A stretch of DNA of 36,545 nucleotides from the IMG/VR virus record IMGVR_UViG_2585427736_000013, one strand, 5' to 3'. Source of the stretch: a virus (Duplodnaviria > Heunggongvirae > Uroviricota > Caudoviricetes). The notes below the pieces were generated by a model. That model was not told the DNA's origin. It made no database searches and saw nothing but the letters and a program-made list of their open reading frames with translations. Below, one piece after another: positions 1 through 36,545 of the stretch (its first letter is position 1; every line of letters begins with the position of its first letter). The position numbers and the translations under genes were made by a program.

Positions 1-1293
<1,293 letters not shown>

Positions 1294-1313: not shown

Positions 1314-1336
1314 AAAAAGCGCCTGCGGGCGCTTTA
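1314..1336 (+). terminator. rho-independent terminator-like hairpin downstream of serS
   Basis: A5 run, stem GCGCC/GGCGC (1319-1323 / 1328-1332) with 4-nt loop, then TTT. Confidence 0.5.
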
Positions 1337-1412
1337 AGTAAAGGTTTAATCATTTGAAAATAAATGGATTTTATTTTTAAGTGTCCATATAACGTCCATC
1401 TTTGAATGCAAA

Positions 1413-1447
1413 AAGCCCACAGCTTCTATGCTATGGGCTTTGTTTTT
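1413..1447. terminator. second hairpin with T-rich tail (possible bidirectional terminator)
   Basis: about 10-bp imperfect stem AAGCCCACAGC / GCTATGGGCTT followed by TTTGTTTTTGG; A-run on the other side. Confidence 0.35.
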
Positions 1448-1471
1448 GGTGTCCTCATGAGTGAGGGAACC

Positions 1472-1503
1472 AAAAAGAAAACCCGCAGTTTTTACGCTGC
1501 GGG
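1472..1503 (-). terminator. intrinsic terminator at 3' end of hok-like transcript
   Basis: perfect 7-bp stem CCCGCAG/CTGCGGG (1482-1488 / 1497-1503); on the minus strand followed by U-tract (complement of 1472-1481). Confidence 0.55.
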
Positions 1504-1595
1504 CTTGTTGTTCACGTCAACTGGAAATAGGGTGCCTTTTCGACCTTTACCCTGGCAACCGATTGACGGGGGATTGCTCCCCCGTCGCGGTTTCC

Positions 1596-1736
1596 TTACT
1601 GCTTACACTGTAAGAACGCCGCAAACTCCGCTCCCCAGAAGCTCATCCGTATTTCACACAGCGAACCGTGCAGCATCCAGATGATGAGGATTGCCGTCAC
1701 GCAGAACGTGATGGCCGTAAGCGATTTTTGCGACAT
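1596..1736 (-). CDS. hok: Hok/Gef-family type I toxin (46 aa), not in ORF track
   Basis: Hand translation of minus strand: MSQKSLTAITFCVTAILIIWMLHGSLCEIRMSFWGAEFAAFLQCKQ; single hydrophobic helix, SLCE motif and AAFLxCK tail resembling HokA-type peptides; AAGGAG Shine-Dalgarno about 8 nt upstream of ATG (rc of 1734-1736). Confidence 0.7.
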   Translation of the reverse strand: MSQKSLTAITFCVTAILIIWMLHGSLCEIRMSFWGAEFAAFLQCKQ

Positions 1737-1866
1737 AGCGCTTGCTCCTTTGTTGGAGAGGCGCTAACCTACGACTTGCGAAGGTTGTATGGTCAGGGCC
1801 TCGGTTAAACAGAAATGTTTTCCGGGGCCTTTCCACATCCGGCCTTCGGGTATTCCCTCCGACCAT
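1654..1866 (-). CDS. mok: mok-like overlapping reading frame (70 aa)
   Basis: ORF-track frame starting upstream of and overlapping the hok-like ORF out of frame, the arrangement of mok/hok loci; low-complexity product. Confidence 0.45.
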   Translation of the reverse strand: MVGGNTRRPDVERPRKTFLFNRGPDHTTFASRRLAPLQQRSKRYVAKIAYGHHVLRDGNPHHLDAARFAV

Positions 1867-1926
1867 CAGCCGAAAGGCACCCGCGTGTAATCTATCGCTT
1901 TTTTGTTAATCCGGCAATTCTGCCCG

Positions 1927-2187
1927 TTAATTCTGAGGTAAAGGCAAGCTCATCTGATTGTTTCCCCTGTGCGAAGCTGGCAGTTCATGCCACGGGATAC
2001 CTTCTGAAGAGTGAACGCCGGAGGCGTGTTTCGATGTGAATTTATGGAAAGCTTCCAGTGTTGAGAAGCATACGCCGCATTCCAGGTTGTTACACTGGTA
2101 ATACTTTTGCCGCACGGTGTTTGAATCATTTTCCGGACGACTGGTGCGGATACGGGCAGATGCGCCACAAAGCGGACAACGGAACAT
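1927..2187 (-). CDS. ogr: late gene transcriptional activator, Ogr/Delta zinc-finger family
   Basis: 86-aa ORF MFRCPLCG...QCNNLECGVCF with the four-Cys arrangement and N-terminal sequence of P2 Ogr. Confidence 0.9.
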   Translation of the reverse strand: MFRCPLCGASARIRTSRPENDSNTVRQKYYQCNNLECGVCFSTLEAFHKFTSKHASGVHSSEGIPWHELPASHRGNNQMSLPLPQN

Positions 2188-2229: not shown

Positions 2230-3330
2230 TCACTCTGTTTCTGCTATCCATTCCGGGATTTTTGCCTCAAGCTCAAGCTGCGTGGTAAAGCCGCTGTTAT
2301 CAATGGTGTGCTCGGCTTTTGCAATGATCCAGTCCTGATTATCAATCTCGCTTTTAAATCCTGTTACCGCACCATGCATTTCGGGGTAGAGTTCTGCGCG
2401 TCCACGTGCCAGTGTGATGGAGAACGCTGCGGCTCCGCGTTGTAGCTGCTGCCACTTTGCCGCTGCTGCGCGTCTTGCTGCCTGCTCGTTCTGATAAGTC
2501 TTGCGTAATACAAACACATTGCCTTCCGCGCCTTCCATATAATCACCTTCACGGCTGCTGCTTTTCTCTTTTTTCGGTTTGCGGCGTTTCACGCTGACTT
2601 TTTTCTTTTTCCCGTAATTAAGATCAAGCCAGTAAGCGCGTACCCCCGTATACGCTTCGCGGTCAGCAATGCGGAACTGATGGCGATCGCCGCTGCTGCG
2701 TGTGATGGCGAACGATGGCAACGGCTGGCCCAGTGCGTTCACGCCACCGCCTGGCATGATGAATAACAGATTACCGCTTTTTACCGTGGTGATTGCGCCC
2801 AGCATTTCCGCCATGCGCGTAAGGAAGGACATGTCGCTTTCTTCGGTCTGGTCGGCGTGGTCGATTTCGATATCCATCAGCATTTCGCTGATTTGCGGTT
2901 TCAGACCGTACCGATGAGCGATGGCAGATACCACGCGCTCAACGGTCACATCATGCCAGGACACCTCACGTTTAACGTTAAATTCATCCCGAAAATCTGC
3001 GCTTCTGGCTGAAACAGTCAGCCTGTCCGGCGGTCCTTCGTGAGCGATTTCATCAACAATGTAAGTGCCTTTTTCTGTCAGCGGTTCCCCTTTCCAGCCA
3101 ATGAGAACCGTCAGACGCGCGCCCCGTGGCGGTAGCTGCAACTGACCATCCGCATCATCCAGCGTGATGGTGAGCTGGTCCGCCTCAAATCCCCGGTTGT
3201 CGGTCAGTGACAGGCTCATCAGGCGCTCTGCCACGCCTGACAGCGCTTTACCCTCCGCAAGAATATCAAAATCCGGCATTTTCACGGGGTCTGTGCCCTG
3301 ACTGAGCAATTGCATGGTGGTGTCGGTCAT
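2230..3330 (-). CDS. D: phage tail protein D (late control gene D family)
   Basis: ORF-track frame 2230..3462; start placed at ATG (rc of 3328-3330, MTDTTMQLL) preceded by GGGAGGG; gpD-like sequence over about 366 aa. Confidence 0.88.
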   Translation of the reverse strand: MTDTTMQLLSQGTDPVKMPDFDILAEGKALSGVAERLMSLSLTDNRGFEADQLTITLDDADGQLQLPPRGARLTVLIGWKGEPLTEKGTYIVDEIAHEGPPDRLTVSARSADFRDEFNVKREVSWHDVTVERVVSAIAHRYGLKPQISEMLMDIEIDHADQTEESDMSFLTRMAEMLGAITTVKSGNLLFIMPGGGVNALGQPLPSFAITRSSGDRHQFRIADREAYTGVRAYWLDLNYGKKKKVSVKRRKPKKEKSSSREGDYMEGAEGNVFVLRKTYQNEQAARRAAAAKWQQLQRGAAAFSITLARGRAELYPEMHGAVTGFKSEIDNQDWIIAKAEHTIDNSGFTTQLELEAKIPEWIAETE

Positions 3331-3487
3331 CTGTTCCCTCCCTGTGCGGCATGGTCGCATGTGCGTGCGGAGGGGGTTACTGCTTTTTGTTGTCGCCGTG
3401 GCGGGAGAACGGCGCAGGGGGGAGATTACGCGCGTGGTGGGTGATGATTGTTGCCGAATCATTTAACGGATACAAGGGGCTGAAGCT
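3331..3487. promoter_or_regulatory. divergent intergenic region between D (minus) and FI (plus); presumed late promoters
   Basis: 157-bp non-coding gap between two divergently oriented essential tail genes; T/G-rich element followed by G-runs at 3382-3422. Confidence 0.35.
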
Positions 3488-23906: not shown

Positions 23907-24263
23907 ATGGAAATGAATATGAAAACTGTAACTGATGATGAATTTCGTGAGAACCTGAGTGAAATTCTGGATTACCTTTCTTCCGGTGGCAGTGTCGTTA
24001 TCACGGCGCAGGGAGGGAAGGATGTTGTTCTTGCTGGTTCTGATCTTAGTCCTGAAATACGGGCTGTCCTTGGCAAAACCAAAAAACTGCGGGATCAAAT
24101 AAACAAAATGAAGCAACCACTCTTAATAAATGCAGTGAGAGATCTGGAAAAACGTCATCCAGCTCTTGTCGCACAGAGAAAAAAAGGATTGTCTTTTGAA
24201 GATGCAATGAAGCGTACAAGAGAAAAACATGCGGATATCATTAAAAAGCTTGAGGATAACTGA
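23907..24263 (+). CDS. phd: Phd/YefM-type antitoxin (long form, 118 aa)
   Basis: N-terminal region resembles the Phd/YefM fold (FRENLSEILDYLSSGGSVVITAQGGKDVVLA); stop overlaps doc start (TGATG); three in-frame ATGs within 12 nt, so the exact start is uncertain. Confidence 0.7.
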   Translation: MEMNMKTVTDDEFRENLSEILDYLSSGGSVVITAQGGKDVVLAGSDLSPEIRAVLGKTKKLRDQINKMKQPLLINAVRDLEKRHPALVAQRKKGLSFEDAMKRTREKHADIIKKLEDN

Positions 24264-24670
24264 TGGACATAGTGTTTTTGTCAAAAGAACAAGTAGAACG
24301 TATCCATGCTGAAACTTTACCCCAGAGCGGAAATGCCAATGACGGGCTACTTGAAGGTGCTTTAAATCGCGTCAGGACACTACACTACTATGAAGGGGTT
24401 GATGATATTCATGCTCTGGCTGCTATGTATTTGATTGGTATAGCTAAGGCTCATGCCTTTCATGATGGGAATAAACGCACAGCTTTTCAGGCTGCATCAA
24501 TATTTTTAATGATGAACTCTTCCGAACTTTCAAACTCCCTGCTGCTGGTTAAATTAACGGTGTTTTCAGCAATGGGGATAGCTACCCTTGAGGAAGTTAC
24601 CTTTGCTTTGAAATTGCTGTCTGATTATGGCAATGAATTAATCAGCGACTACGAAGAAGATTATATTTAA
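24263..24670 (+). CDS. doc: Doc (death-on-curing) Fic-fold toxin
   Basis: 135 aa containing the Doc-type motif HAFHDGNKRTA. Confidence 0.85.
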   Translation: MDIVFLSKEQVERIHAETLPQSGNANDGLLEGALNRVRTLHYYEGVDDIHALAAMYLIGIAKAHAFHDGNKRTAFQAASIFLMMNSSELSNSLLLVKLTVFSAMGIATLEEVTFALKLLSDYGNELISDYEEDYI

Positions 24671-24836
24671 TGCTGGCATACTCTGTCGTGTTAAGACAAC
24701 AGCCTTTGCGGAGACAGGGCAGGGTGCCAGACTTGCCCGCAGCGCGTCTGACATGAGCAGTTATTCATCTTTTTTATTGTTTTTCTCCATGCATGGCGAC
24801 AGTGCGCCCCGATAAAATTAAAAGCCGTCAAATTCG

Positions 24837-25172
24837 TCATTCATGCGTTTTTTCTTCATGGTCTGTCACTTCTCTCCTGATAAATTCATTGCACAAATCA
24901 ACGCACTCATTGCAGATGTAAACAGACGGTCCGGCAATCAGCTTTGTGACTTCGTACTGGGATTTATTGCAGAAGCTGCAATAAATCGTCTTCTCGCCTG
25001 AAGTCCATGTTTTGCTGGTTTCGCCAGACATCAGTTGTTTGATGTCTTTTTCACGACGAAGAACTATCCGGCCACATTCAGCTATTTTTTGGATGTTGAC
25101 ATTTTCTTCTTTCGCCAGCGCTTCCATTCGCTCAATCAGTCGCTGCGCTTTTTCTCTGTCAATGTGTTGCAT
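24837..25172 (-). CDS. small protein with C-terminal ClpX-type C4 zinc-binding domain
   Basis: 111 aa; residues 64-100 ([38 protein letters not shown]) closely match the N-terminal zinc-binding domain of ClpX as recalled; AAGGGG Shine-Dalgarno. Confidence 0.8.
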
Positions 25173-25206
25173 TGTGTCCCCTTTGTTTATGTTCCCGGAT
25201 TAAAGT

Positions 25207-25230
25207 CATCAGGGCGGATGCGCCCTGATG
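25207..25230 (-). terminator. strong hairpin between parR and the zinc-binding-domain gene
   Basis: perfect 10-bp stem CATCAGGGCG/CGCCCTGATG with 4-nt loop, 6 nt past the parR stop; weak U-tract. Confidence 0.4.
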
Positions 25231-25235
25231 TTGTG

Positions 25236-25547
25236 TTATTCGGGAAATAATGCCCGGATATTTCCGGCCATCTGACTGGTTATCTGTGCGGTTGGTACTG
25301 GCTGTGACACGGGGCGTTCTGTCCTGGTTTGTGTCAGGGATAACGCTTCATCGTCAGCCCATGCAGCCAGTCGGTAAGCCTCTGCCGGATTAATTTTCAT
25401 AAGTGCCAGTCCGGCCAGAAAAGCCACGCGTTGACCACTTTTGCGGGCTTCTGGTGTAAGGCTGTCCAGCCAGGCGCATGCTTCGCCTTCGTTCTTGACG
25501 GCGGCGGGCTTCAGATAGAAACTTATCCGTCTGGTTGGTGTCGTCAT
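25236..25547 (-). CDS. parR: ParR/StbB-like centromere-binding protein
   Basis: Track frame 25236..25682; start placed at ATG (rc of 25545-25547) with AAGGAG Shine-Dalgarno just after parM stop; N-terminus resembles plasmid R1 ParR as recalled. Confidence 0.7.
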   Translation of the reverse strand: MTTPTRRISFYLKPAAVKNEGEACAWLDSLTPEARKSGQRVAFLAGLALMKINPAEAYRLAAWADDEALSLTQTRTERPVSQPVPTAQITSQMAGNIRALFPE

Positions 25548-25551
25548 TGGT

Positions 25552-26511
25552 TTACTCCTTGTCCATTGCGTACAGCCCATTAACCAGAGCAAACTGTGGC
25601 ACCCCGTCCGCGATGAAAGTCGCATTAACTCCGCAGGCTTCGCGGATAGCGGGTGCCACAATCTCCGCCCCGCCACCGACAACCATCACCCGCCCGTAAC
25701 CCGAAAAACCCGCCAGCGCGCGGATCACGCGTTGTTTCAGTGTTTCTTCCTTTTCACGAATAACCGCCATCAGGCTGGCGTAATGCGCGTCATTGTGGAT
25801 GTGCTGGCGCAACCAGGCTTCATCATGGCGATGTTCGATAATGGTATTGGCGATGTGGTGACTGGTACGCATACCGTTAGTGGCCATCACCGACAGTACG
25901 GCATCGGCCATCAGGGAAACGCCTACGTGTGGATCGCAAAACACCTGGCTGATACCTGCCAGTTGCCCCTGAACCTTTGCCACATCCAGTGTGGTTCCGC
26001 CTAAATCCACAATCAGCAGGGATTCAAACGGACTCATGTCAGCCAGTGCCTTAAAGCCAGCCGGAATGGATTCAGGCATAACCCGTACGTTACGGATAGT
26101 GAATGCTTCGCCGTTCTGGTACTCCACCGGGCGCATGACGTTCGCTTTTTTGCGGTTGATGTTGGCCATGTCCGGCTGTGCGTTTGTGTCGAAATATTCG
26201 CTCAGTGGCAGGGTGACAACCACATCCACTTCCTGTGGTGTGATGCCTGATTTGACCAGCGCGTGGTGAATGGCGATTACATTCACATCGCTGTACTGGT
26301 ATTGCGTGTCGGTCGTCTGGACAAAGCGATCGCTGACCGGATCAAAACCATAGCGCACGCCATCAAGCATGTAGTTCGCGGGCTGCGTGCCACCGAACGG
26401 CGCAGACCATTCCGACTTGAAGCTGTTCGGGCTGATGGCGTTGCGGCGTTCGCCGTTCTCAGTCCATGCCAGCTTGATGTTGGTGGAGCCGTCGTCGATA
26501 CAAATTTTCAT
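25552..26511 (-). CDS. parM: ParM/StbA-like actin-type segregation ATPase
   Basis: 319 aa; extended similarity to plasmid R1 ParM as recalled (IDDGSTNIKL, ISPNSF, QYSDVNV, RKKANV, VMPESIPAG, LLIVDLGGTTLD, GGGAE, LVNGLY). Confidence 0.85.
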   Translation of the reverse strand: MKICIDDGSTNIKLAWTENGERRNAISPNSFKSEWSAPFGGTQPANYMLDGVRYGFDPVSDRFVQTTDTQYQYSDVNVIAIHHALVKSGITPQEVDVVVTLPLSEYFDTNAQPDMANINRKKANVMRPVEYQNGEAFTIRNVRVMPESIPAGFKALADMSPFESLLIVDLGGTTLDVAKVQGQLAGISQVFCDPHVGVSLMADAVLSVMATNGMRTSHHIANTIIEHRHDEAWLRQHIHNDAHYASLMAVIREKEETLKQRVIRALAGFSGYGRVMVVGGGAEIVAPAIREACGVNATFIADGVPQFALVNGLYAMDKE

Positions 26512-26660
26512 GTAGCTTTTCCTTATGTTGATTAATTAATCGGTTACAGGATTTTTAAATCCCGCTTTTGCCTGTTTTGTGCGCGCTTCATATATCGCGG
26601 CGCGTTTTTTGCTCATTTACGGGATTTGTGAGTCCCGTTTCTGTCTGTTTTTTGTTTCCA
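26512..26660. promoter_or_regulatory. candidate parC-like centromere/promoter region upstream of parM
   Basis: Two units of palindrome plus CTGTTTT-containing direct repeat (26547-26581 and 26620-26654) flanking a GC hairpin with T6 (26581-26610); the second unit overlaps the 3' end of gene A. Confidence 0.35.
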
Positions 26661-29410
26661 CTGGTCAGGCTACCCCGCAGCAGGTCTGCTTTGCGGTGGG
26701 CGCGTTCAGTGGTTTCACTGATTCTCTGTGCGTGCTCTGCGTCACGGATGGCGCGCAGCATGTCAGAAAGCACGGTAACGGGGGTTTTCATGGTGTTCTG
26801 GTCCTGCTGAAGTGTGGATGCCAGACGTGCGGCGGCTTCGGGGTCTGATGCCCCCAGTTGTTCCAGATAGCTGGCGACCGGGTTATGGCGGATCTCTGTG
26901 CTGCTTACGCCGTGATTACGGCTCAGGCGCTGCCAGAACTGCGTGATTCGGCTGTCCGGGCGGGTATCCGGTTTGCGTACAATTTCAAATCCCTGCGGTG
27001 CAATGATGCTACCGTCAACGTACAGGCTGCCGCCCCGTAACAGGTGCTGCATCTGCTGTTCACCGATATGCAGGCCGAGAGATTCGGCAGATTCCCGCCA
27101 TTCTTTAGCGAGTAATTCGTGGTTATCAGGCAAAGGCCGCTGCTGTTTGCGGCTCTGTGTCCAGCTCTGCATTTCATCACTGCTGTTTTTTGCCTGTTTG
27201 TCACGAAGCGAACGCATCAGCGCCCGGCGTTCGTGCCGTTTCAGTGAGCGCATCCATTCGTTCACTTCAACGCCGTCAGGGAGCTGCGGCCACGGTGCTG
27301 GTCGTTCTTCCGGCTGTTCTGTCCCGTTGTTGTCCGTTTCCTGTACACGGGGACAGTTATTGCCACGAGTCCAAGGGGCGGCAGGGCCGCCCTGAAGGTC
27401 AAAACCATTTTCGCGGGCGCTGTCTTCCGCTTCCGGTTTGCGTCTTACCAGCTTCCAGTTATCCGGATGCGTGCATACGCGGGAAGACTCCCCGATGAGT
27501 GGTGACCAGATCCCGTAAATCTGTACGCTCTGTTCGCCGTAATCGTTCAGCTCATCGGCGAGGTCGTAGGCGGTGCGAATCAGGTAGTCTTTACGTGGAA
27601 CAAGTACGCCACCCTGTTTTTCAATGTAGGAGGCAAAACACCCGGCATCGGCGGCAGCGAGTACCGCATCCATTGCGTCATTCTTCAGCCGTTGCGGGCC
27701 TTCCGGGTTGCGTGCCATCTGGCTGGCAAGGCGGCGGAGTTCACGCCACACCTGACGGGAGGGAATGCCAAAGAACTGGAACTGGCGGACCCGGTGAAGG
27801 CGCGCCCAGCCGATGGCGCGTTCCACGCTCTCGGCCATTGATTTTCCTGTTTCGTGGTCAACGCGTGGCTTGCCCGTTTTCGGGTCGATGCCATCCACGG
27901 CGCGGCTGTCCAGGTTCTTTCCGATGTAGGTGGCGATGTAGCTGGTTGGTGTGCCTTTTGAGCCGTCGACATACTCCACCTTAAAGCGTGGGGTAATATC
28001 ATCACCCAGCTCGTGGCGGTCTTCCTGAATGGCAATATCGCGGGTGATGGCCACGATGCTGTCGATTTCTTCCGGATGAGCAAAGACCATCATGTGCCAG
28101 TGCACGGTGCCGTCATGGTGAGGCTCCACCGTGCGGATGCCATACCAGCGCAGGCCGTCGCGGTTCAGTTTTTTGCGGACCGCCGCAAAAAACGTGTTAA
28201 CCAGGTAATCGCTGGAGTCGCGCATAGTGGCCCCGTTCCATTTGGGGTTCGGATGACCGTTCTCTGTTGTGGCGTGGTATTTTGACGGGCAGGTGACAGT
28301 CAGAAACACCGCTTTGTCGCCACGGGCTTCGGCCAGAAGTTCCAGCCCCTTCATGGTGGCCATCATTTCTGCCTTACGGTGAACCGGGTTACTTACTCCC
28401 GCGTAATACACTGTCTCAAGATCAATCGTGAACCCGTCTTCGTTTTCCAGCATGAAACTTTTCAGGAAATCGCGTGTTTTCTCGCGCTGTGCGCGAAACT
28501 CGCTTAACGCGTCCTGGCTCAGATAGGGTGATGTTTTTCTGGAAACCAGACAGGCGGCGCGGAGTTGTTCTTCTCTCCACTCGCAACGTAACAGCCACAG
28601 TTTGCGTTTCCACCAGTCCGCACAGGTCAGGCGAAGGATTGCGCCCGGTAACAGTTCCGTATCCGGTGCGTTCCTCCGGTCCTTGTCTGTTGTCAGTGCG
28701 TCATAATGCGGCGGCATGGTGTGCAGATGTAACGCCATGCGTGCCAGCATCTGATATGCCTTCAGCGCCACCTCCATGGTCAGTTCACCATCGGTCGCAC
28801 CAAAGTTATCGCAGAGTGTTTCGAAGGTGCTGCTGAACATCGCCGCTGTCATAGTGGCCAGCGTCTGTATCTGGTGCTTGTTGAGCTGTGGCAGGTAAAG
28901 CAAATCGTCCAGGCGTTCACGTCCGGCAAGGGAGCGATAACCCGGAGTTAGCCAGCGACGGTCGGTGCGGTCCAGACGTTCGAATATTTTGCGCAGGGTT
29001 CCGCGCGCGTAACGTTCAGCCTGCCAGTTCTTTTTTCCTTTCTGGCGATCGGCTTCCTGTTTTTTGCGCAGGAAGGAGAGGTGGCGAATAAGCGGGTCGC
29101 GCAGATAGGACGGCAGCAGGCGCAGCGAGGCCATGGCTTCATCCACCGCGCCGCGTGCCTGTCTTCTGGCGTCTCCTGCCAGCGTGATGGTTTTGTCCTG
29201 TTTTTCCTGTGCGTCCAGGCTTTTATTAATCAGGTTGCCCAGTGGCGTGGCGGAGAACGCCGCATCAGCCTTTTCCTGGCGGCGCTCGTTCTCTGCCCGG
29301 TAGGCATCCAGCCAGGAGGAAAGCGCGGATTCAGGAGCGGGGATCCCCGTTCCTTCACGCCCCACTGCGTGGCGCGGTTGTTGCCAGTCCCTGATGTACT
29401 CTGCCGTCAT
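26588..29410 (-). CDS. A: replication initiation endonuclease, gpA-like (rolling-circle HUH family)
   Basis: 940 aa with HUH-type motif (TVHWHMMVFAH); position upstream of the cos-side accessory slot. Confidence 0.88.
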   Translation of the reverse strand: MTAEYIRDWQQPRHAVGREGTGIPAPESALSSWLDAYRAENERRQEKADAAFSATPLGNLINKSLDAQEKQDKTITLAGDARRQARGAVDEAMASLRLLPSYLRDPLIRHLSFLRKKQEADRQKGKKNWQAERYARGTLRKIFERLDRTDRRWLTPGYRSLAGRERLDDLLYLPQLNKHQIQTLATMTAAMFSSTFETLCDNFGATDGELTMEVALKAYQMLARMALHLHTMPPHYDALTTDKDRRNAPDTELLPGAILRLTCADWWKRKLWLLRCEWREEQLRAACLVSRKTSPYLSQDALSEFRAQREKTRDFLKSFMLENEDGFTIDLETVYYAGVSNPVHRKAEMMATMKGLELLAEARGDKAVFLTVTCPSKYHATTENGHPNPKWNGATMRDSSDYLVNTFFAAVRKKLNRDGLRWYGIRTVEPHHDGTVHWHMMVFAHPEEIDSIVAITRDIAIQEDRHELGDDITPRFKVEYVDGSKGTPTSYIATYIGKNLDSRAVDGIDPKTGKPRVDHETGKSMAESVERAIGWARLHRVRQFQFFGIPSRQVWRELRRLASQMARNPEGPQRLKNDAMDAVLAAADAGCFASYIEKQGGVLVPRKDYLIRTAYDLADELNDYGEQSVQIYGIWSPLIGESSRVCTHPDNWKLVRRKPEAEDSARENGFDLQGGPAAPWTRGNNCPRVQETDNNGTEQPEERPAPWPQLPDGVEVNEWMRSLKRHERRALMRSLRDKQAKNSSDEMQSWTQSRKQQRPLPDNHELLAKEWRESAESLGLHIGEQQMQHLLRGGSLYVDGSIIAPQGFEIVRKPDTRPDSRITQFWQRLSRNHGVSSTEIRHNPVASYLEQLGASDPEAAARLASTLQQDQNTMKTPVTVLSDMLRAIRDAEHAQRISETTERAHRKADLLRGSLTSGNKKQTETGLTNPVNEQKTRRDI

Positions 29411-34078: not shown

Positions 34079-34501
34079 TTATGCCGGGCTGCTCCCGGCA
34101 TCTTCTAGCTGCCATAATGTCTCGTCACCTGATAGAGCAAAACGAAATGAGTGAAGTATATCCTCCCGAGAGAAGCTCACGGCTACAGCTGCGGGAAAGT
34201 CAAATATAATCCCACCTTCATTTTTAAAACGATTACGCAATTGATAGGCTATCGGTTTGATTTGTGCAGGAAGAGTATCTATATCTCTTCCATTGACAAC
34301 AGAATCTTTGTTTTCCAGTACTGATTTAGCGATTAGATATAGATGCCAGTAACTGGTTACAATTGTTACTCCTGTGATGTGTCGTAAATTAATTGCAATT
34401 CGTCCGTTATTATATTTTTCCGCAAGGTATTTCAGGTTATCAATTAATGCTTGGTCATTTTTTGAAATAGTTATTGTGAAATCTGACGTGTTTGTTTTCA
34501 T
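34079..34501 (-). CDS. hypothetical protein (140 aa), AT-rich cargo directly downstream of cox-like gene
   Basis: ORF 5 nt after cox-like stop; visibly AT-rich; no recognisable motif. Confidence 0.5.
   Translation of the reverse strand: MKTNTSDFTITISKNDQALIDNLKYLAEKYNNGRIAINLRHITGVTIVTSYWHLYLIAKSVLENKDSVVNGRDIDTLPAQIKPIAYQLRNRFKNEGGIIFDFPAAVAVSFSREDILHSFRFALSGDETLWQLEDAGSSPA
34081..34101. terminator. hairpin at convergent junction of the 63-aa and 140-aa genes
   Basis: ATGCCGGG-ctgct-CCCGGCAT (8-bp stem) inside the last codons of the 140-aa ORF. Confidence 0.3.
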
Positions 34502-34505
34502 ACGA

Positions 34506-35027
34506 TTAGTTGCCTCTGTTGTTTCTGAGTTGGTTCAGTTTTGAGCTTCTGCCTGTATAAACTCGCTTACCGTTAATGGTCTGGCAGTCTTCTTTATTAG
34601 CTGGAGAGAACTTCCTTTTCTGGCGGTCATACGTCCAGTAACTTTTCCAGTTGTGCCATTCTGGGGGCTCGTGCTCTGGTAGCTCATCAGCCAACTTGTC
34701 CCACTCTTTGGCGTTAAACCACCATACTCCGTCTGAGTTTTCATCTTCCGGGTTTGTGCGCGTCTTGTGTCCCGGCATTTGACCGCGATGAATGGCTACG
34801 CGCAGTGCAGATTTTGTTAGCCCAATATATGCCGCGCCTTTTTCCAGAGAGCAAAGCCCGGCGATCGGACCATCCAGCCGTAAAGTCGCTCCTTTTTTGT
34901 AGGAACGCTTTTTCTTGTTTTCTTCGTGTTCGTCGTCGTTGGCAGCATCAATGGATCCGCTGAGTGCGTCACTTTCCTGAAGTGGTTGGTGGTCAGATAA
35001 CTCTTTATCGGCAATGAAGTCCCGCAT
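34506..35027 (-). CDS. cox: Cox/Apl-like excisionase-regulator with N-terminal acidic extension
   Basis: 173 aa; central region (AAYIGLTKSALRVAIHRGQMPGHK...GVWWFNAKEWDKLA) resembles P2 Cox as recalled; divergent from C. Confidence 0.65.
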   Translation of the reverse strand: MRDFIADKELSDHQPLQESDALSGSIDAANDDEHEENKKKRSYKKGATLRLDGPIAGLCSLEKGAAYIGLTKSALRVAIHRGQMPGHKTRTNPEDENSDGVWWFNAKEWDKLADELPEHEPPEWHNWKSYWTYDRQKRKFSPANKEDCQTINGKRVYTGRSSKLNQLRNNRGN

Positions 35028-35069
35028 TTGTTATCCTCTTGCGTTGGTGCGCTTATCGCGCCTTGTTAT

Positions 35070-35117
35070 GGTTTGTTTTGGTTTGTTTTGGTTTGTAAAG
35101 ATAATCGTACGGTTATC
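35070..35117. promoter_or_regulatory. operator-like repeats in the cox/C divergent promoter region
   Basis: Three tandem 10-bp repeats GGTTTGTTTT (35070-35099) followed by near-palindrome GATAATCG-ta-CGGTTATC (35100-35117). Confidence 0.5.
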
Positions 35118-35141
35118 TTTGTGCGAGAGGTTAATACTCAA

Positions 35142-35483
35142 ATGGTTATCTTGTCAATAGACTATGCGGAAAAGTTGCGTCAAATACGTAAGGCAGAGGG
35201 GCTAACACAAAAGCAGTTTGCTGATATCACAGGACTATCTTTAGCAGCCATAAGGAACTATGAATCAGGGCAAAAAAGCGCCAGAGCAAAAATCGTTGAG
35301 ACTGTTTTGCAGGTAGATCGATTCGAAAAGTATATGTTGTGGTTATTAAAGGATAAAACGCTACCTGCCGCCGGGCAAATAGCCCCGGCTCTCTCTCTTG
35401 ATGGCTCTTCTCAGTCGGAGGGCGATCAGGCTTCAACCGACGCTATCCAAAAATCACCCCGATCAGGCCGCAATGCTGGCTGA
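35142..35483 (+). CDS. C: immunity repressor C (P2 C-like, HTH)
   Basis: Track frame 35028..35483; start placed at ATG 35142 with GAGAGG Shine-Dalgarno; HTH (LTQKQFADITGLSLAAIRNYESGQ) and C-terminal KYMLWLL...GQIAPAL match P2 C as recalled. Confidence 0.85.
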   Translation: MVILSIDYAEKLRQIRKAEGLTQKQFADITGLSLAAIRNYESGQKSARAKIVETVLQVDRFEKYMLWLLKDKTLPAAGQIAPALSLDGSSQSEGDQASTDAIQKSPRSGRNAG

Positions 35484-35537
35484 CGCTACACATTGAGCGA
35501 ATTGCATTTCGCAAGGAGTGCCTGATTAATTTATCCG

Positions 35538-36545
35538 TTGGAGGGGCTAATCATGTCGATTAAGCAACTCAAAGACGGACGTTATAAGGTTGATGTAAGA
35601 CCACAGGGTGCTGAGGGTAAGCGGATTCGAAAAACCTTCACCCTGAAATCGAAGGCCCAGGAGTTTGAGAGGTATGTTTTACAGAATTTTCATGACAAGC
35701 CGTGGCAGGCAAAACCAGCTGATCAGCGGCGGTTATCTGAACTGATAGAGGACTGGTGGATGCTTGACGGACGTAATCAGCCTTACGGAGATTCCTACAG
35801 GGTCAGGCTGGAAAAGGTGATACGTGAAATGGGAGATCCACGCGCCAGCCAGATGACGCGAAAATTTATGCTTGAATATCGGTCAGAGAAATTACAGGCC
35901 GGATTAATGCCGTCCAGCATTAATCGTGACTTGTGCGTTTTGTCAACGATGTTCTCAGTATTGATTGAGACGGAGGTTTTTCACAACGCGAACCCTGTAC
36001 GCGGTATACGCAAACTGAAAGTTCAGAACACAGAAATGGCCTTTCTTTCTGATGATGAGATTGATCGGCTTCTTGAGCGACTCGAAGGTGATGCGCGTCG
36101 TGTCGCCATTCTGTGTCTTTCTACGGGAGCTCGGTGGGGTGAGGCGGCGGAATTACGTGGGGAGCATATCGTCGGTAATCGCGTGACGTTCTTCAACACC
36201 AAGAACGGGAAGTCTCGTTCGGTTCCGGTGTCTGATGCCGTGCTCTCGCTGATTAAAACCCGCCGAACCGGGCCGCTGTACGATGTCGATTATCTCCGGT
36301 TTCGCGAGATCCTCCAGGAGGTGAAGCCTGATTTGCCAAAAGGACAGGCTACTCATGTGATGCGTCATACGTTCGCCACGCATTTCATGATGAACGGGGG
36401 AAACATCGTTACCCTGCAACGGATTCTGGGACATGCCACTATTCAGCAAACGATGACTTATGCGCATTTTTCACCGGACTTTTTACAGGACGCAATCAAC
36501 TTTAATCCGCTGGCTGAAAGTGTCCATAAACTGTCCATCGATTAG
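35538..36545 (+). CDS. int: tyrosine integrase
   Basis: 335 aa ending at TAG 36543-36545; C-terminal catalytic region with HxxR and conserved Tyr (HVMRHTFATHF...LGHATIQQTMTYAHF); start TTG 35538 or ATG 35553. Confidence 0.93.
   Translation: MEGLIMSIKQLKDGRYKVDVRPQGAEGKRIRKTFTLKSKAQEFERYVLQNFHDKPWQAKPADQRRLSELIEDWWMLDGRNQPYGDSYRVRLEKVIREMGDPRASQMTRKFMLEYRSEKLQAGLMPSSINRDLCVLSTMFSVLIETEVFHNANPVRGIRKLKVQNTEMAFLSDDEIDRLLERLEGDARRVAILCLSTGARWGEAAELRGEHIVGNRVTFFNTKNGKSRSVPVSDAVLSLIKTRRTGPLYDVDYLRFREILQEVKPDLPKGQATHVMRHTFATHFMMNGGNIVTLQRILGHATIQQTMTYAHFSPDFLQDAINFNPLAESVHKLSID

Follow-up and report, generated by a model that had tools for sequence, protein, structure and literature searches.

The locus considered here raises the question of what is encoded in the short stretch separating serS from the late-gene activator ogr in E. 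coli, and of whether it belongs to the host chromosome or to the prophage beside it. The window, by which we mean the entire stretch of DNA analysed (36,545 nucleotides), opens with serS (1..1293, plus strand), and all DNA past the serS terminator is that of a P2-like prophage, in which tail, head and replication genes are found beyond gpD and which also carries the Phd/Doc and ParM/StbB stability modules. The region very probably holds a type I toxin-antitoxin module of the hok/sok kind, which a P88-like prophage (Xuanwuvirus, P2-like) integrated at the serS terminator of E. coli carries as accessory cargo close to its att site. Sequence analysis predicts a minus-strand transcript of ~411 nt, running from 1882 to ~1472 and encoding a 46-aa Hok-family membrane peptide; on the plus strand it points to a conserved candidate promoter and a hairpin, which would yield a ~60-nt Sok-like antisense RNA complementary to positions +48..+106 of the hok leader. 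The surroundings of the locus are as follows.

1316..1335, no strand: attL core aaagcgcctgcgggcgcttt, identical with the serS terminator hairpin; 20 bp found at both prophage ends in strain CD45, with K-12 as the empty site
1927..2187, minus strand: ogr, late-gene activator (Pfam Ogr_Delta, 52.4 bits), the upstream neighbour of hok on the same strand
2230..3462, minus strand: gpD
35538..36545: integrase, which closes the window

The first-pass annotation had set the locus between serS and the prophage and had taken it to mark their junction, while allowing that it might be cargo of the prophage end. The latter suggestion was the correct one. In strain CD45 the same prophage layout occurs between serS and dmsA, and the 20 bp aaagcgcctgcgggcgcttt are present at both ends, thus also past int; the serS-dmsA intergenic region of K-12 matches the window only to 1335, diverges immediately afterwards, and does not contain the hok locus. 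From this duplication of the core in CD45, and from the end of the K-12 match at 1335, it follows that hok lies inside the prophage. The true host/prophage junction is the att core at 1316-1335, with 137 bp of prophage DNA separating it from the end of the hok transcript. The same locus is found in genomes deposited as phages (P88, Chuche, P884B11, 500465-2, 520873, PhiR44_2 and Shae_phiSM); it adjoins ogr in P88, Chuche, P884B11, 500465-2 and Shae_phiSM, and the genomes of P88 and Chuche, which carry it beside ogr, are virion-derived. The deposited phages nearest to 1465-2230 are P88, Chuche, P884B11 and related Xuanwuvirus members, at 94-96% identity. A relative of the peptide is encoded on 265 IMG/VR viral contigs, many of which end 3 nt past the hok stop codon, making hok the last gene of the prophage predicted there. 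The content of the hok-att interval differs among the phages, with a methyltransferase/com pair in Chuche and tagO in Shae_phiSM. A host chromosomal locus, situated between serS and the prophage and foreign to the phage, could be argued from the position of hok as the first gene past serS and from the 129 bp between the att core and the locus (1336-1464), which have no match in P88 or Chuche and are here unique to serS-type elements. Against it stand the K-12 empty site, which lacks the locus, the recurrence of the att core past the integrase in CD45, and the phage genomes in which hok lies beside ogr; its probability is virtually nil, and we regard it as refuted by the CD45 repeat together with the K-12 divergence after 1335. 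Taken together, the position within the att repeats and the presence in phage genomes show that the locus is cargo of a P2-like (Peduoviridae, Xuanwuvirus) phage.

The coding part of the locus is a single short gene.

1596..1736, minus strand: hok-family toxin ORF, 46 aa, MSQKSLTAITFCVTAILIIWMLHGSLCEIRMSFWGAEFAAFLQCKQ (Pfam HOK_GEF, PHROG 251, pN/pS, RefSeq annotation)

The 46-aa ORF with an SLCE motif and a strong ribosome-binding site, as originally described, is present: the peptide contains SLCEIR, and the Shine-Dalgarno (SD) sequence AAGGAG is located 8 nt 5' of the hok ATG. Its proposed membership of the Hok/Gef family was upheld by Pfam (HOK_GEF, PF01848; 29.9 bits vs a GA of 22, E 4.1e-7, profile positions 5-42 of 42), and the peptide also matched PHROG 251, 'MokW-like host killing' (80.6 bits, E 1e-22). 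Both named Hok models of NCBIfam scored under their cut-offs (HokA equivalog, 34 bits vs 89; Hok subfamily, 21.6 vs 73), and the peptide is, as judged from its sequence, a Hok/Gef family member outside the named NCBIfam equivalogs; some sources label it HokA. Its layout, as read from the sequence, is one N-terminal hydrophobic helix followed by a C-terminal Cys-containing core (SLCE.R ... AAF). It shares 39% identity with R1 Hok over the SLCEIR...AAF core, in an alignment spanning residues 12-42, and C12, C27, E28, R30, A39, A40 and C44 are invariant across the 46-aa clade. The ORF is intact in phage, plasmid and chromosomal copies, with a pN/pS of 0.13-0.53 relative to its homologues. At least 1000 public contigs encode exactly this peptide under the name "Hok/Gef family protein", and RefSeq places a 'Hok/Gef family protein' at the corresponding spot in 294 complete E. 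coli genomes (region coverage >=80%). The locus is thus an ordinary Hok-family "host-killing" toxin gene, already annotated, and the last gene of the prophage. Our literature search found no experimental study of the 46-aa Hok clade, and nothing specific on hok in P2-like phages or in defence hotspots.

To examine the RNA parts of the locus, 13 intact homologues of 72-99% DNA identity were aligned; the set covers P2-like phages, IncI1 plasmids, chromosomal copies and, from Stx phages, the copy beside lom. The elements predicted on the hok strand are listed below in the 5' to 3' order of the transcript.

1889..1917, minus strand: putative hok promoter, -35 TTGCCG (1912-1917), 17-nt spacer, -10 TAGATT (1889-1894); identified by eye, 8/12 consensus positions
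1868..1882, minus strand: predicted tac element at the mRNA 5' end, GGGUGCCUUUCGGCU; the match to Rfam RF01794 begins there, and it is invariant in 13/13 homologues
1824..1836, minus strand: candidate local alternative partner of the 5' end, GUGGAAAGGCCCC, tac-stem or ucb-like, +47..+59 (truncated-RNA minimum free energy (MFE) fold; RNAalifold consensus)
1745..1761, minus strand: hok SD AAGGAG (1745-1750) with an upstream anti-SD CCUCUCC (1755-1761), predicted to form a local hairpin (full-length MFE)
1565..1586, minus strand: 3' stem-loop just past the hok stop codon, found by scan; 100% of cells paired
1530..1545, minus strand: predicted fbi (fold-back inhibitory) element, GGUCGAAAAGGCACCC, pairing with the mRNA 5' end in the full-length MFE
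1472..1506, minus strand: Rho-independent terminator of the hok transcript, a bidirectional hairpin with a stem of 10 pairs (1506..1479) and a T-run to ~1472 (terminator scan)

The ogr stop codon lies at 1927, and the putative hok promoter occupies the gap from there down to the presumed hok +1 at 1882; the terminator scan detected no terminator in this interval. The motifs TTGnnn and TAnAnT, 17-18 nt apart, recur at a constant distance from the 5' end in P2-like, Stx-phage, IncI1-plasmid and chromosomal copies with differing flanks. A strict sigma-70 consensus scan of 1280-2250 returned no promoter, the hok and Sok promoters both being weak consensus matches; the two were assigned on positional conservation and on homology to the R1 layout. 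We infer the hok +1 from alignment with R1-type leaders. Rfam RF01794 ('sok') matches 1726-1882 on the minus strand over the full length of the model, with 41.8 bits and E 8.9e-8, under the gathering score of 59. As a control, an R1-type locus was scored with the same model and gave 87.2 bits in the sense orientation, indicating that the model represents the hok leader; because of this, the match places the mRNA 5' end at 1882.

The complementarity between the ends of the mRNA, first given as 12 bp, was found to comprise 15 bp with one bulge between the reverse complements of 1868-1882 (GGGUGCCUUUCGGCU) and 1530-1545 (GGUCGAAAAGGCACCC), with a duplex energy of -24.5 kcal/mol, as compared to -15.6 kcal/mol for the best alternative pairing of the 5' end within its own mRNA. 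Folding of the 411-nt transcript gave an MFE of -173.6 kcal/mol (z -5.93; 0/100 shuffles as good) in a structure containing this tac/fbi helix. In the 13 homologues 96% of its cells are paired, and four pairs are altered on the 3' side only, with pairing kept; an invariant 5' strand is what is expected if a second partner must also fit. The duplex energy ranges from -21.6 to -27.6 kcal/mol in all 14 homologues, including the diverged S. diarizonae copy, in which both strands of the pairing are changed and their mutual pairing beats that with the partner of any other homologue. The tac-stem, in which GUGGAAAGGCCCC pairs with +1..+14, appears both in the MFE of the truncated RNA (the transcript trimmed back to the 3' hairpin) and in the RNAalifold consensus; its 12/12 pairs are present in 13/13 homologues and are all invariant, hence they carry no covariation evidence. 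The helix between SD and anti-SD is paired in the full-length MFE, is 95% paired across the homologues, and opens in the truncated-RNA MFE, where GAGGC (+81..85) pairs with GCCUC (+121..125), the very anti-SD by which AAGGAG is masked in the full-length MFE. Across the 13 homologues, the two whole-molecule conformers are each 91-92% paired vs 37-45% with the partners slid, a comparison that favours them as the structures were taken from the window's own fold.

The 3' hairpin and the minus-strand terminator that had been noted by inspection were both recovered by scan. Compensatory double changes were seen across the homologues at 4/9 pairs of the 1565-1586 hairpin, which is likely the 3' end protector of a processed (truncated) mRNA. 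The terminator is kept in P88, Chuche and the Salmonella copies, and fbi lies just upstream of it. The features of the locus are well beyond chance (Pfam E 4e-7, Rfam E 9e-8). Weak Rfam matches within 1283-1568 (mir-4875, mir-9, mir-586, Leu/Thr leaders, Atu_C9 and STAXI) were discarded as chance matches to terminator hairpins. A scan of one genome per species yielded five loci only and little taxonomic breadth, namely two in Salmonella and three in likely contaminants; the contigs concerned, labelled Planococcaceae, Vagococcus and Xanthomonas, resemble enterobacterial contamination.

On the opposite strand, two further elements would make up the antisense gene.

1742..1770, plus strand: putative Sok-like promoter, -35 TTGCTC (1742-1747), 17-nt spacer, -10 TAACCT (1765-1770); conserved in the 13 homologues
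1777..1835 (approximate), plus strand: predicted Sok-like RNA with a ~20-nt single-stranded 5' tail, a long hairpin (1795-1831) and UUUCC; from folding, with presumed ends

The promoter hexamers and their spacing are kept in 13/13 homologues, yet their match to the consensus is weak and falls below the strict scan; in 933W the -35 hexamer reads TTGACT. The R1 Sok promoter occupies the equivalent site, overlapping the hok SD. A Sok-like RNA had been suggested at 1790-1890, which was roughly right as to position; homology to the R1 promoter layout would put it at ~1777-1835. The predicted RNA folds with -24.9 kcal/mol (z -3.9), and the same fold was obtained for every homologue; the base of the hairpin is conserved, and the upper stem varies by clade but folds in each. 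Nowhere is the locus more variable than in the target of the Sok tail (hok leader +88..+112), and among the IMG/VR leaders several distinct target alleles occur alongside an identical Hok peptide. This pattern suggests that the hypervariable stretch may represent specificity alleles of the antisense pair.

The manner in which such a module may act can be modelled on R1 hok/sok (reviewed in PMC9841398). The full-length mRNA would be locked by the 5'/3' tac/fbi pairing, with the hok SD buried in the local anti-SD hairpin. Slow trimming of the 3' end to the 1565-1586 hairpin would remove fbi, the 5' end could then shift to its nearby partner at +47..+59, and GAGGC (+81..85) would capture the anti-SD and so free the hok SD. 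As long as transcription continues, a labile Sok would pair with the leader and block or destroy the activated mRNA; once transcription stops, through prophage loss or through host shut-off by an infecting or induced phage, Sok would decay first and Hok would depolarise the membrane. We infer this logic, in which a labile antisense RNA restrains a stable and slowly activated toxin mRNA, from R1 (PMC9841398) and hokW-sokW (PMC8621323).

In R1, Hok synthesis requires the translation of mok, which starts 7 nt past a GAGG SD (PMC9841398); a mok-like ORF had also been proposed here.

1654..1866, minus strand: 70-aa ORF in the mok-equivalent frame, overlapping hok in the relative frame of R1 mok

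The ORF exists as described, and its identification as mok was not supported. That the locus is a canonical hok/mok/sok system, in which this ORF encodes a genuine Mok leader and has to be translated before the hok ribosome-binding site can open, would agree with the requirement for mok in R1, with the frame itself (xxC xAU Gxx over the hok AUG, reading through the hok start), and with the presence of some start codon in this frame in 14 of 24 distinct IMG/VR leaders, the commonest included. The other 10 leaders have none, however, and whether the frame is open tracks the allele of the hypervariable Sok-target stretch. The only AUG of the frame in the window is at +17, inside the tac helix and without an SD; the site equivalent to the R1 mok start here reads CAU/ACA, and no homologue compared has a start codon at that site, 7 nt past the conserved GAGG. 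Though Hok is intact, 9/13 homologues have this frame closed or startless (Chuche, P88, the STEC1012 copy, 933W, Stx2_EC3283, phi419, the EDL933 copy and both IncI1 plasmids); within the homologue set, the window, CD45 and Shae_phiSM alone combine an open frame with a start codon, P27 having only a TTG at +102. A run of 56 stop-free leader codons has an estimated chance probability of ~0.07 per frame. Other leader frames, non-canonical starts and in-frame N-terminal extensions of Hok were also searched, and none was conserved across the homologues. The R1 mok coordinates used in these comparisons were taken from PMC9841398 in place of an R1-type locus (L018) that had been considered as a control for the ORF; this plasmid variant was unsuitable, as its upstream ATG is in frame with hok, 57 nt upstream. 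The canonical arrangement is quite unlikely here; a frame that is not conserved while Hok remains intact points to an ORF that is probably fortuitous, and we think that hok translation at this locus is not coupled to the mok frame. Without a conserved mok, either the mechanism differs from that of R1 or the toxin is poorly translated. The pairing of GAGGC with GCCUC in the truncated RNA would offer a mok-independent route to activation, as a prediction only; the unmasking of the SD is compatible with the model and does not prove it, since the MFE is that of one sequence and the helices hardly vary. Our tentative proposal, which as a whole we consider possible though doubtful, is that the 46-aa clade (at P2-like prophage ends, beside lom in Stx phages and on IncI1 plasmids) represents a mok-less hok/sok, in which 3' trimming would switch the 5' partner, the former 'mok SD' GAGGC would unmask the hok ribosome-binding site as an anti-anti-SD, Sok would reverse the switch or trigger cleavage, and specificity alleles of the Sok tail and its target would let several copies coexist in a cell.

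In a different view, hok is an inactive relic that makes no toxin, as are the disabled hok loci of E. coli K-12, and hitch-hikes at the prophage end. The lack of a conserved mok and the weak consensus of the two promoters may be read in this way, as may degraded copies elsewhere (an E. albertii plasmid copy with deletions, and Stx2_EH2011, where an 8-nt deletion cuts Hok to 24 aa). We nevertheless find it very unlikely for this locus, where the ORF is intact and under a pN/pS of 0.13-0.53, the identical peptide recurs on its many contigs, and the RNA control elements are all kept across phage families and plasmids at 72-99% DNA identity; a Sok target that is hypervariable while Hok stays identical suggests ongoing selection on the antisense pair. 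The possible roles of the module are prophage retention, abortive infection against other phages, and help with lysis after induction. The last of these, selection for the phage's own lysis and not for retention or defence, is an unlikely alternative. When hokW-sokW was deleted from Sp5, phage release fell to half, and the appearance of Hok after mitomycin C depended on RecA (PMC8621323); moreover, a second, 46-aa hok of the window's clade is found beside lom in 933W/Sp5-type phages, and hok immediately follows ogr on the same strand, the scan having detected no terminator in between. On the other hand, hokW is a different, HokC/D-like locus of 51 aa, and the module of the window also occurs on IncI1 plasmids and, beside serS, in tandem arrays, settings that do not involve phage lysis. 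Its occurrence on plasmids, together with the Phd/Doc and ParM/StbB modules of the same prophage, tilts the balance to retention and/or defence of the abortive-infection type, which we consider the most likely payoff.

Hok/sok biology is textbook knowledge, and the present findings mainly confirm an existing annotation, as RefSeq and several phage records already call the ORF Hok/Gef. What they add is a predicted map of the RNA parts that had been left unannotated (promoters, tac, fbi, tac-stem, Sok and terminator), the exact prophage boundary, and a widespread clade devoid of a conserved mok frame. The mildly interesting residue is possibly a mok-less regulatory variant with hypervariable antisense alleles; if its independence of mok were borne out by experiment, the rule drawn from R1, by which Hok is never translated without Mok, would need qualifying.

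Among known systems, a close parallel is R1 hok/sok (parB). Shared with it are a single-helix toxin of the Hok family with the SLCEIR...AAF core, an mRNA 5' end with two alternative partners (the 3' fbi and the local tac-stem), a stem-loop after the stop codon, an fbi just upstream of the terminator, a putative antisense promoter overlapping the hok SD, a predicted antisense RNA consisting of a single-stranded 5' tail and a hairpin, and an end-to-end alignment to the Rfam leader model. Unlike R1, which is a plasmid, the window carries its locus in a phage genome; its toxin has 46 aa vs 52 aa, its leader scores only 41.8 bits vs 87 for the R1-type locus, and it has neither a conserved mok frame nor a mok start at the R1 position.

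[quoted passage not shown] 2021, PMC8621323), and PHROGs places it in family 251 together with the hok of the window. It was rejected as the characterised counterpart of the latter: the primers given in PMC8621323 yield a 51-aa, HokC/D-like peptide (MKQQKAM...) at a different locus, unlike the gene described here. The relatives of the window's hok in 933W/Sp5-type phages are the separate 46-aa copy beside lom, with 80-83% DNA identity; this copy is unannotated in the AF125520 record, and no study of it was found in the literature. E. coli K-12 HokA (NCBIfam NF007290) is the best-scoring named Hok equivalog; the score of 34 bits is far under the equivalog cut-off of 89, and its genomic location is another. 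The same gene as that of the window is the Hok/Gef of P88, Chuche and P884B11 (Xuanwuvirus; WP_000078916/WP_000078911). The phage and RefSeq records examined have only a CDS at the locus, with no Sok RNA or mRNA elements among their features. In these phages the gene lies beside ogr at 94-99% DNA identity, the Chuche peptide is identical to that of the window, and the differences amount to allelic variation only, most of it in the target of the Sok tail and in the hok-att interval.

The 46-aa hok of the clade to which the window's gene belongs was also found just 3' of lom in Stx phages of the 933W/Sp5 type, where it carries no annotation in AF125520. In 933W this copy is located as follows:

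L007 1501-1875 (933W 45491-45865): 46-aa hok copy, downstream of lom

The lom-adjacent gene is distinct from the published hokW-sokW locus, although both belong to the same type of phage. A further arrangement was seen in STEC1012 (CP061270.1, 1198663-1199749), in which three tandem Hok/Gef genes lie directly behind serS and are followed downstream by a different prophage with tail-fibre genes. Since this record, labelled as a 1.2-Mb 'plasmid', carries both rarA and serS, it is probably chromosomal sequence. On an IncFII plasmid (NZ_CP128973.1, 32150-33005) we found a variant of the R1-type hok/sok, for which the RefSeq annotation gives only a 33-aa fragment; an ATG at the mok position is located 57 nt 5' of hok and in the same frame, and its product would be an N-terminally extended Hok and not a separate Mok. 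Near-identical E. coli-type hok loci were also present in contigs labelled as a Planococcaceae MAG, Vagococcus sp. and Xanthomonas pisi (L021, L022 and L024), flanked by ogr or by Stx-phage sequence; these contigs are probably the result of assembly contamination.

The 129 bp which separate the att core from the hok terminator in the window (1336-1464) have no counterpart in the Xuanwuvirus phages P88 and Chuche, and are common to serS-integrated prophages such as that of strain CD45. They include the following element:

about 1411-1445: strong bidirectional terminator-like hairpin, aaaaagcccacagc...gctatgggctttgttttt

The 129-bp stretch may represent the attP arm of the window's integrase type. 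At the other end of the prophage, the integrase/cox/repressor region (34500-36545) displayed a best identity of only about 90% among 5,426 complete E. coli genomes, whereas some of these genomes match the hok end at 99% identity; the prophage is either a mosaic element or derived from a source strain that is absent from this collection.

An additional gene was located between gpU and gpG, an interval which we take to be the Z/fun slot of phage P2:

9256-9798: hexapeptide-repeat acyltransferase ORF, 180 aa

It is likely another moron. Besides hok/sok, the prophage was also seen to carry further plasmid-style maintenance genes (23907-26511) beside gpA:

23907-24263: Phd/YefM antitoxin
24263-24670: Fic/Doc toxin, paired with the Phd/YefM antitoxin
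24837-25172: ClpX-type zinc-finger protein
25236-25682: StbB 'plasmid stability' protein
25552-26511: ParM/StbA actin-like segregation protein, with StbB
26588-29410: gpA replication gene

Together with hok/sok, the 23907-26511 set resembles the two stability loci of plasmid R1 plus the phd/doc of P1.
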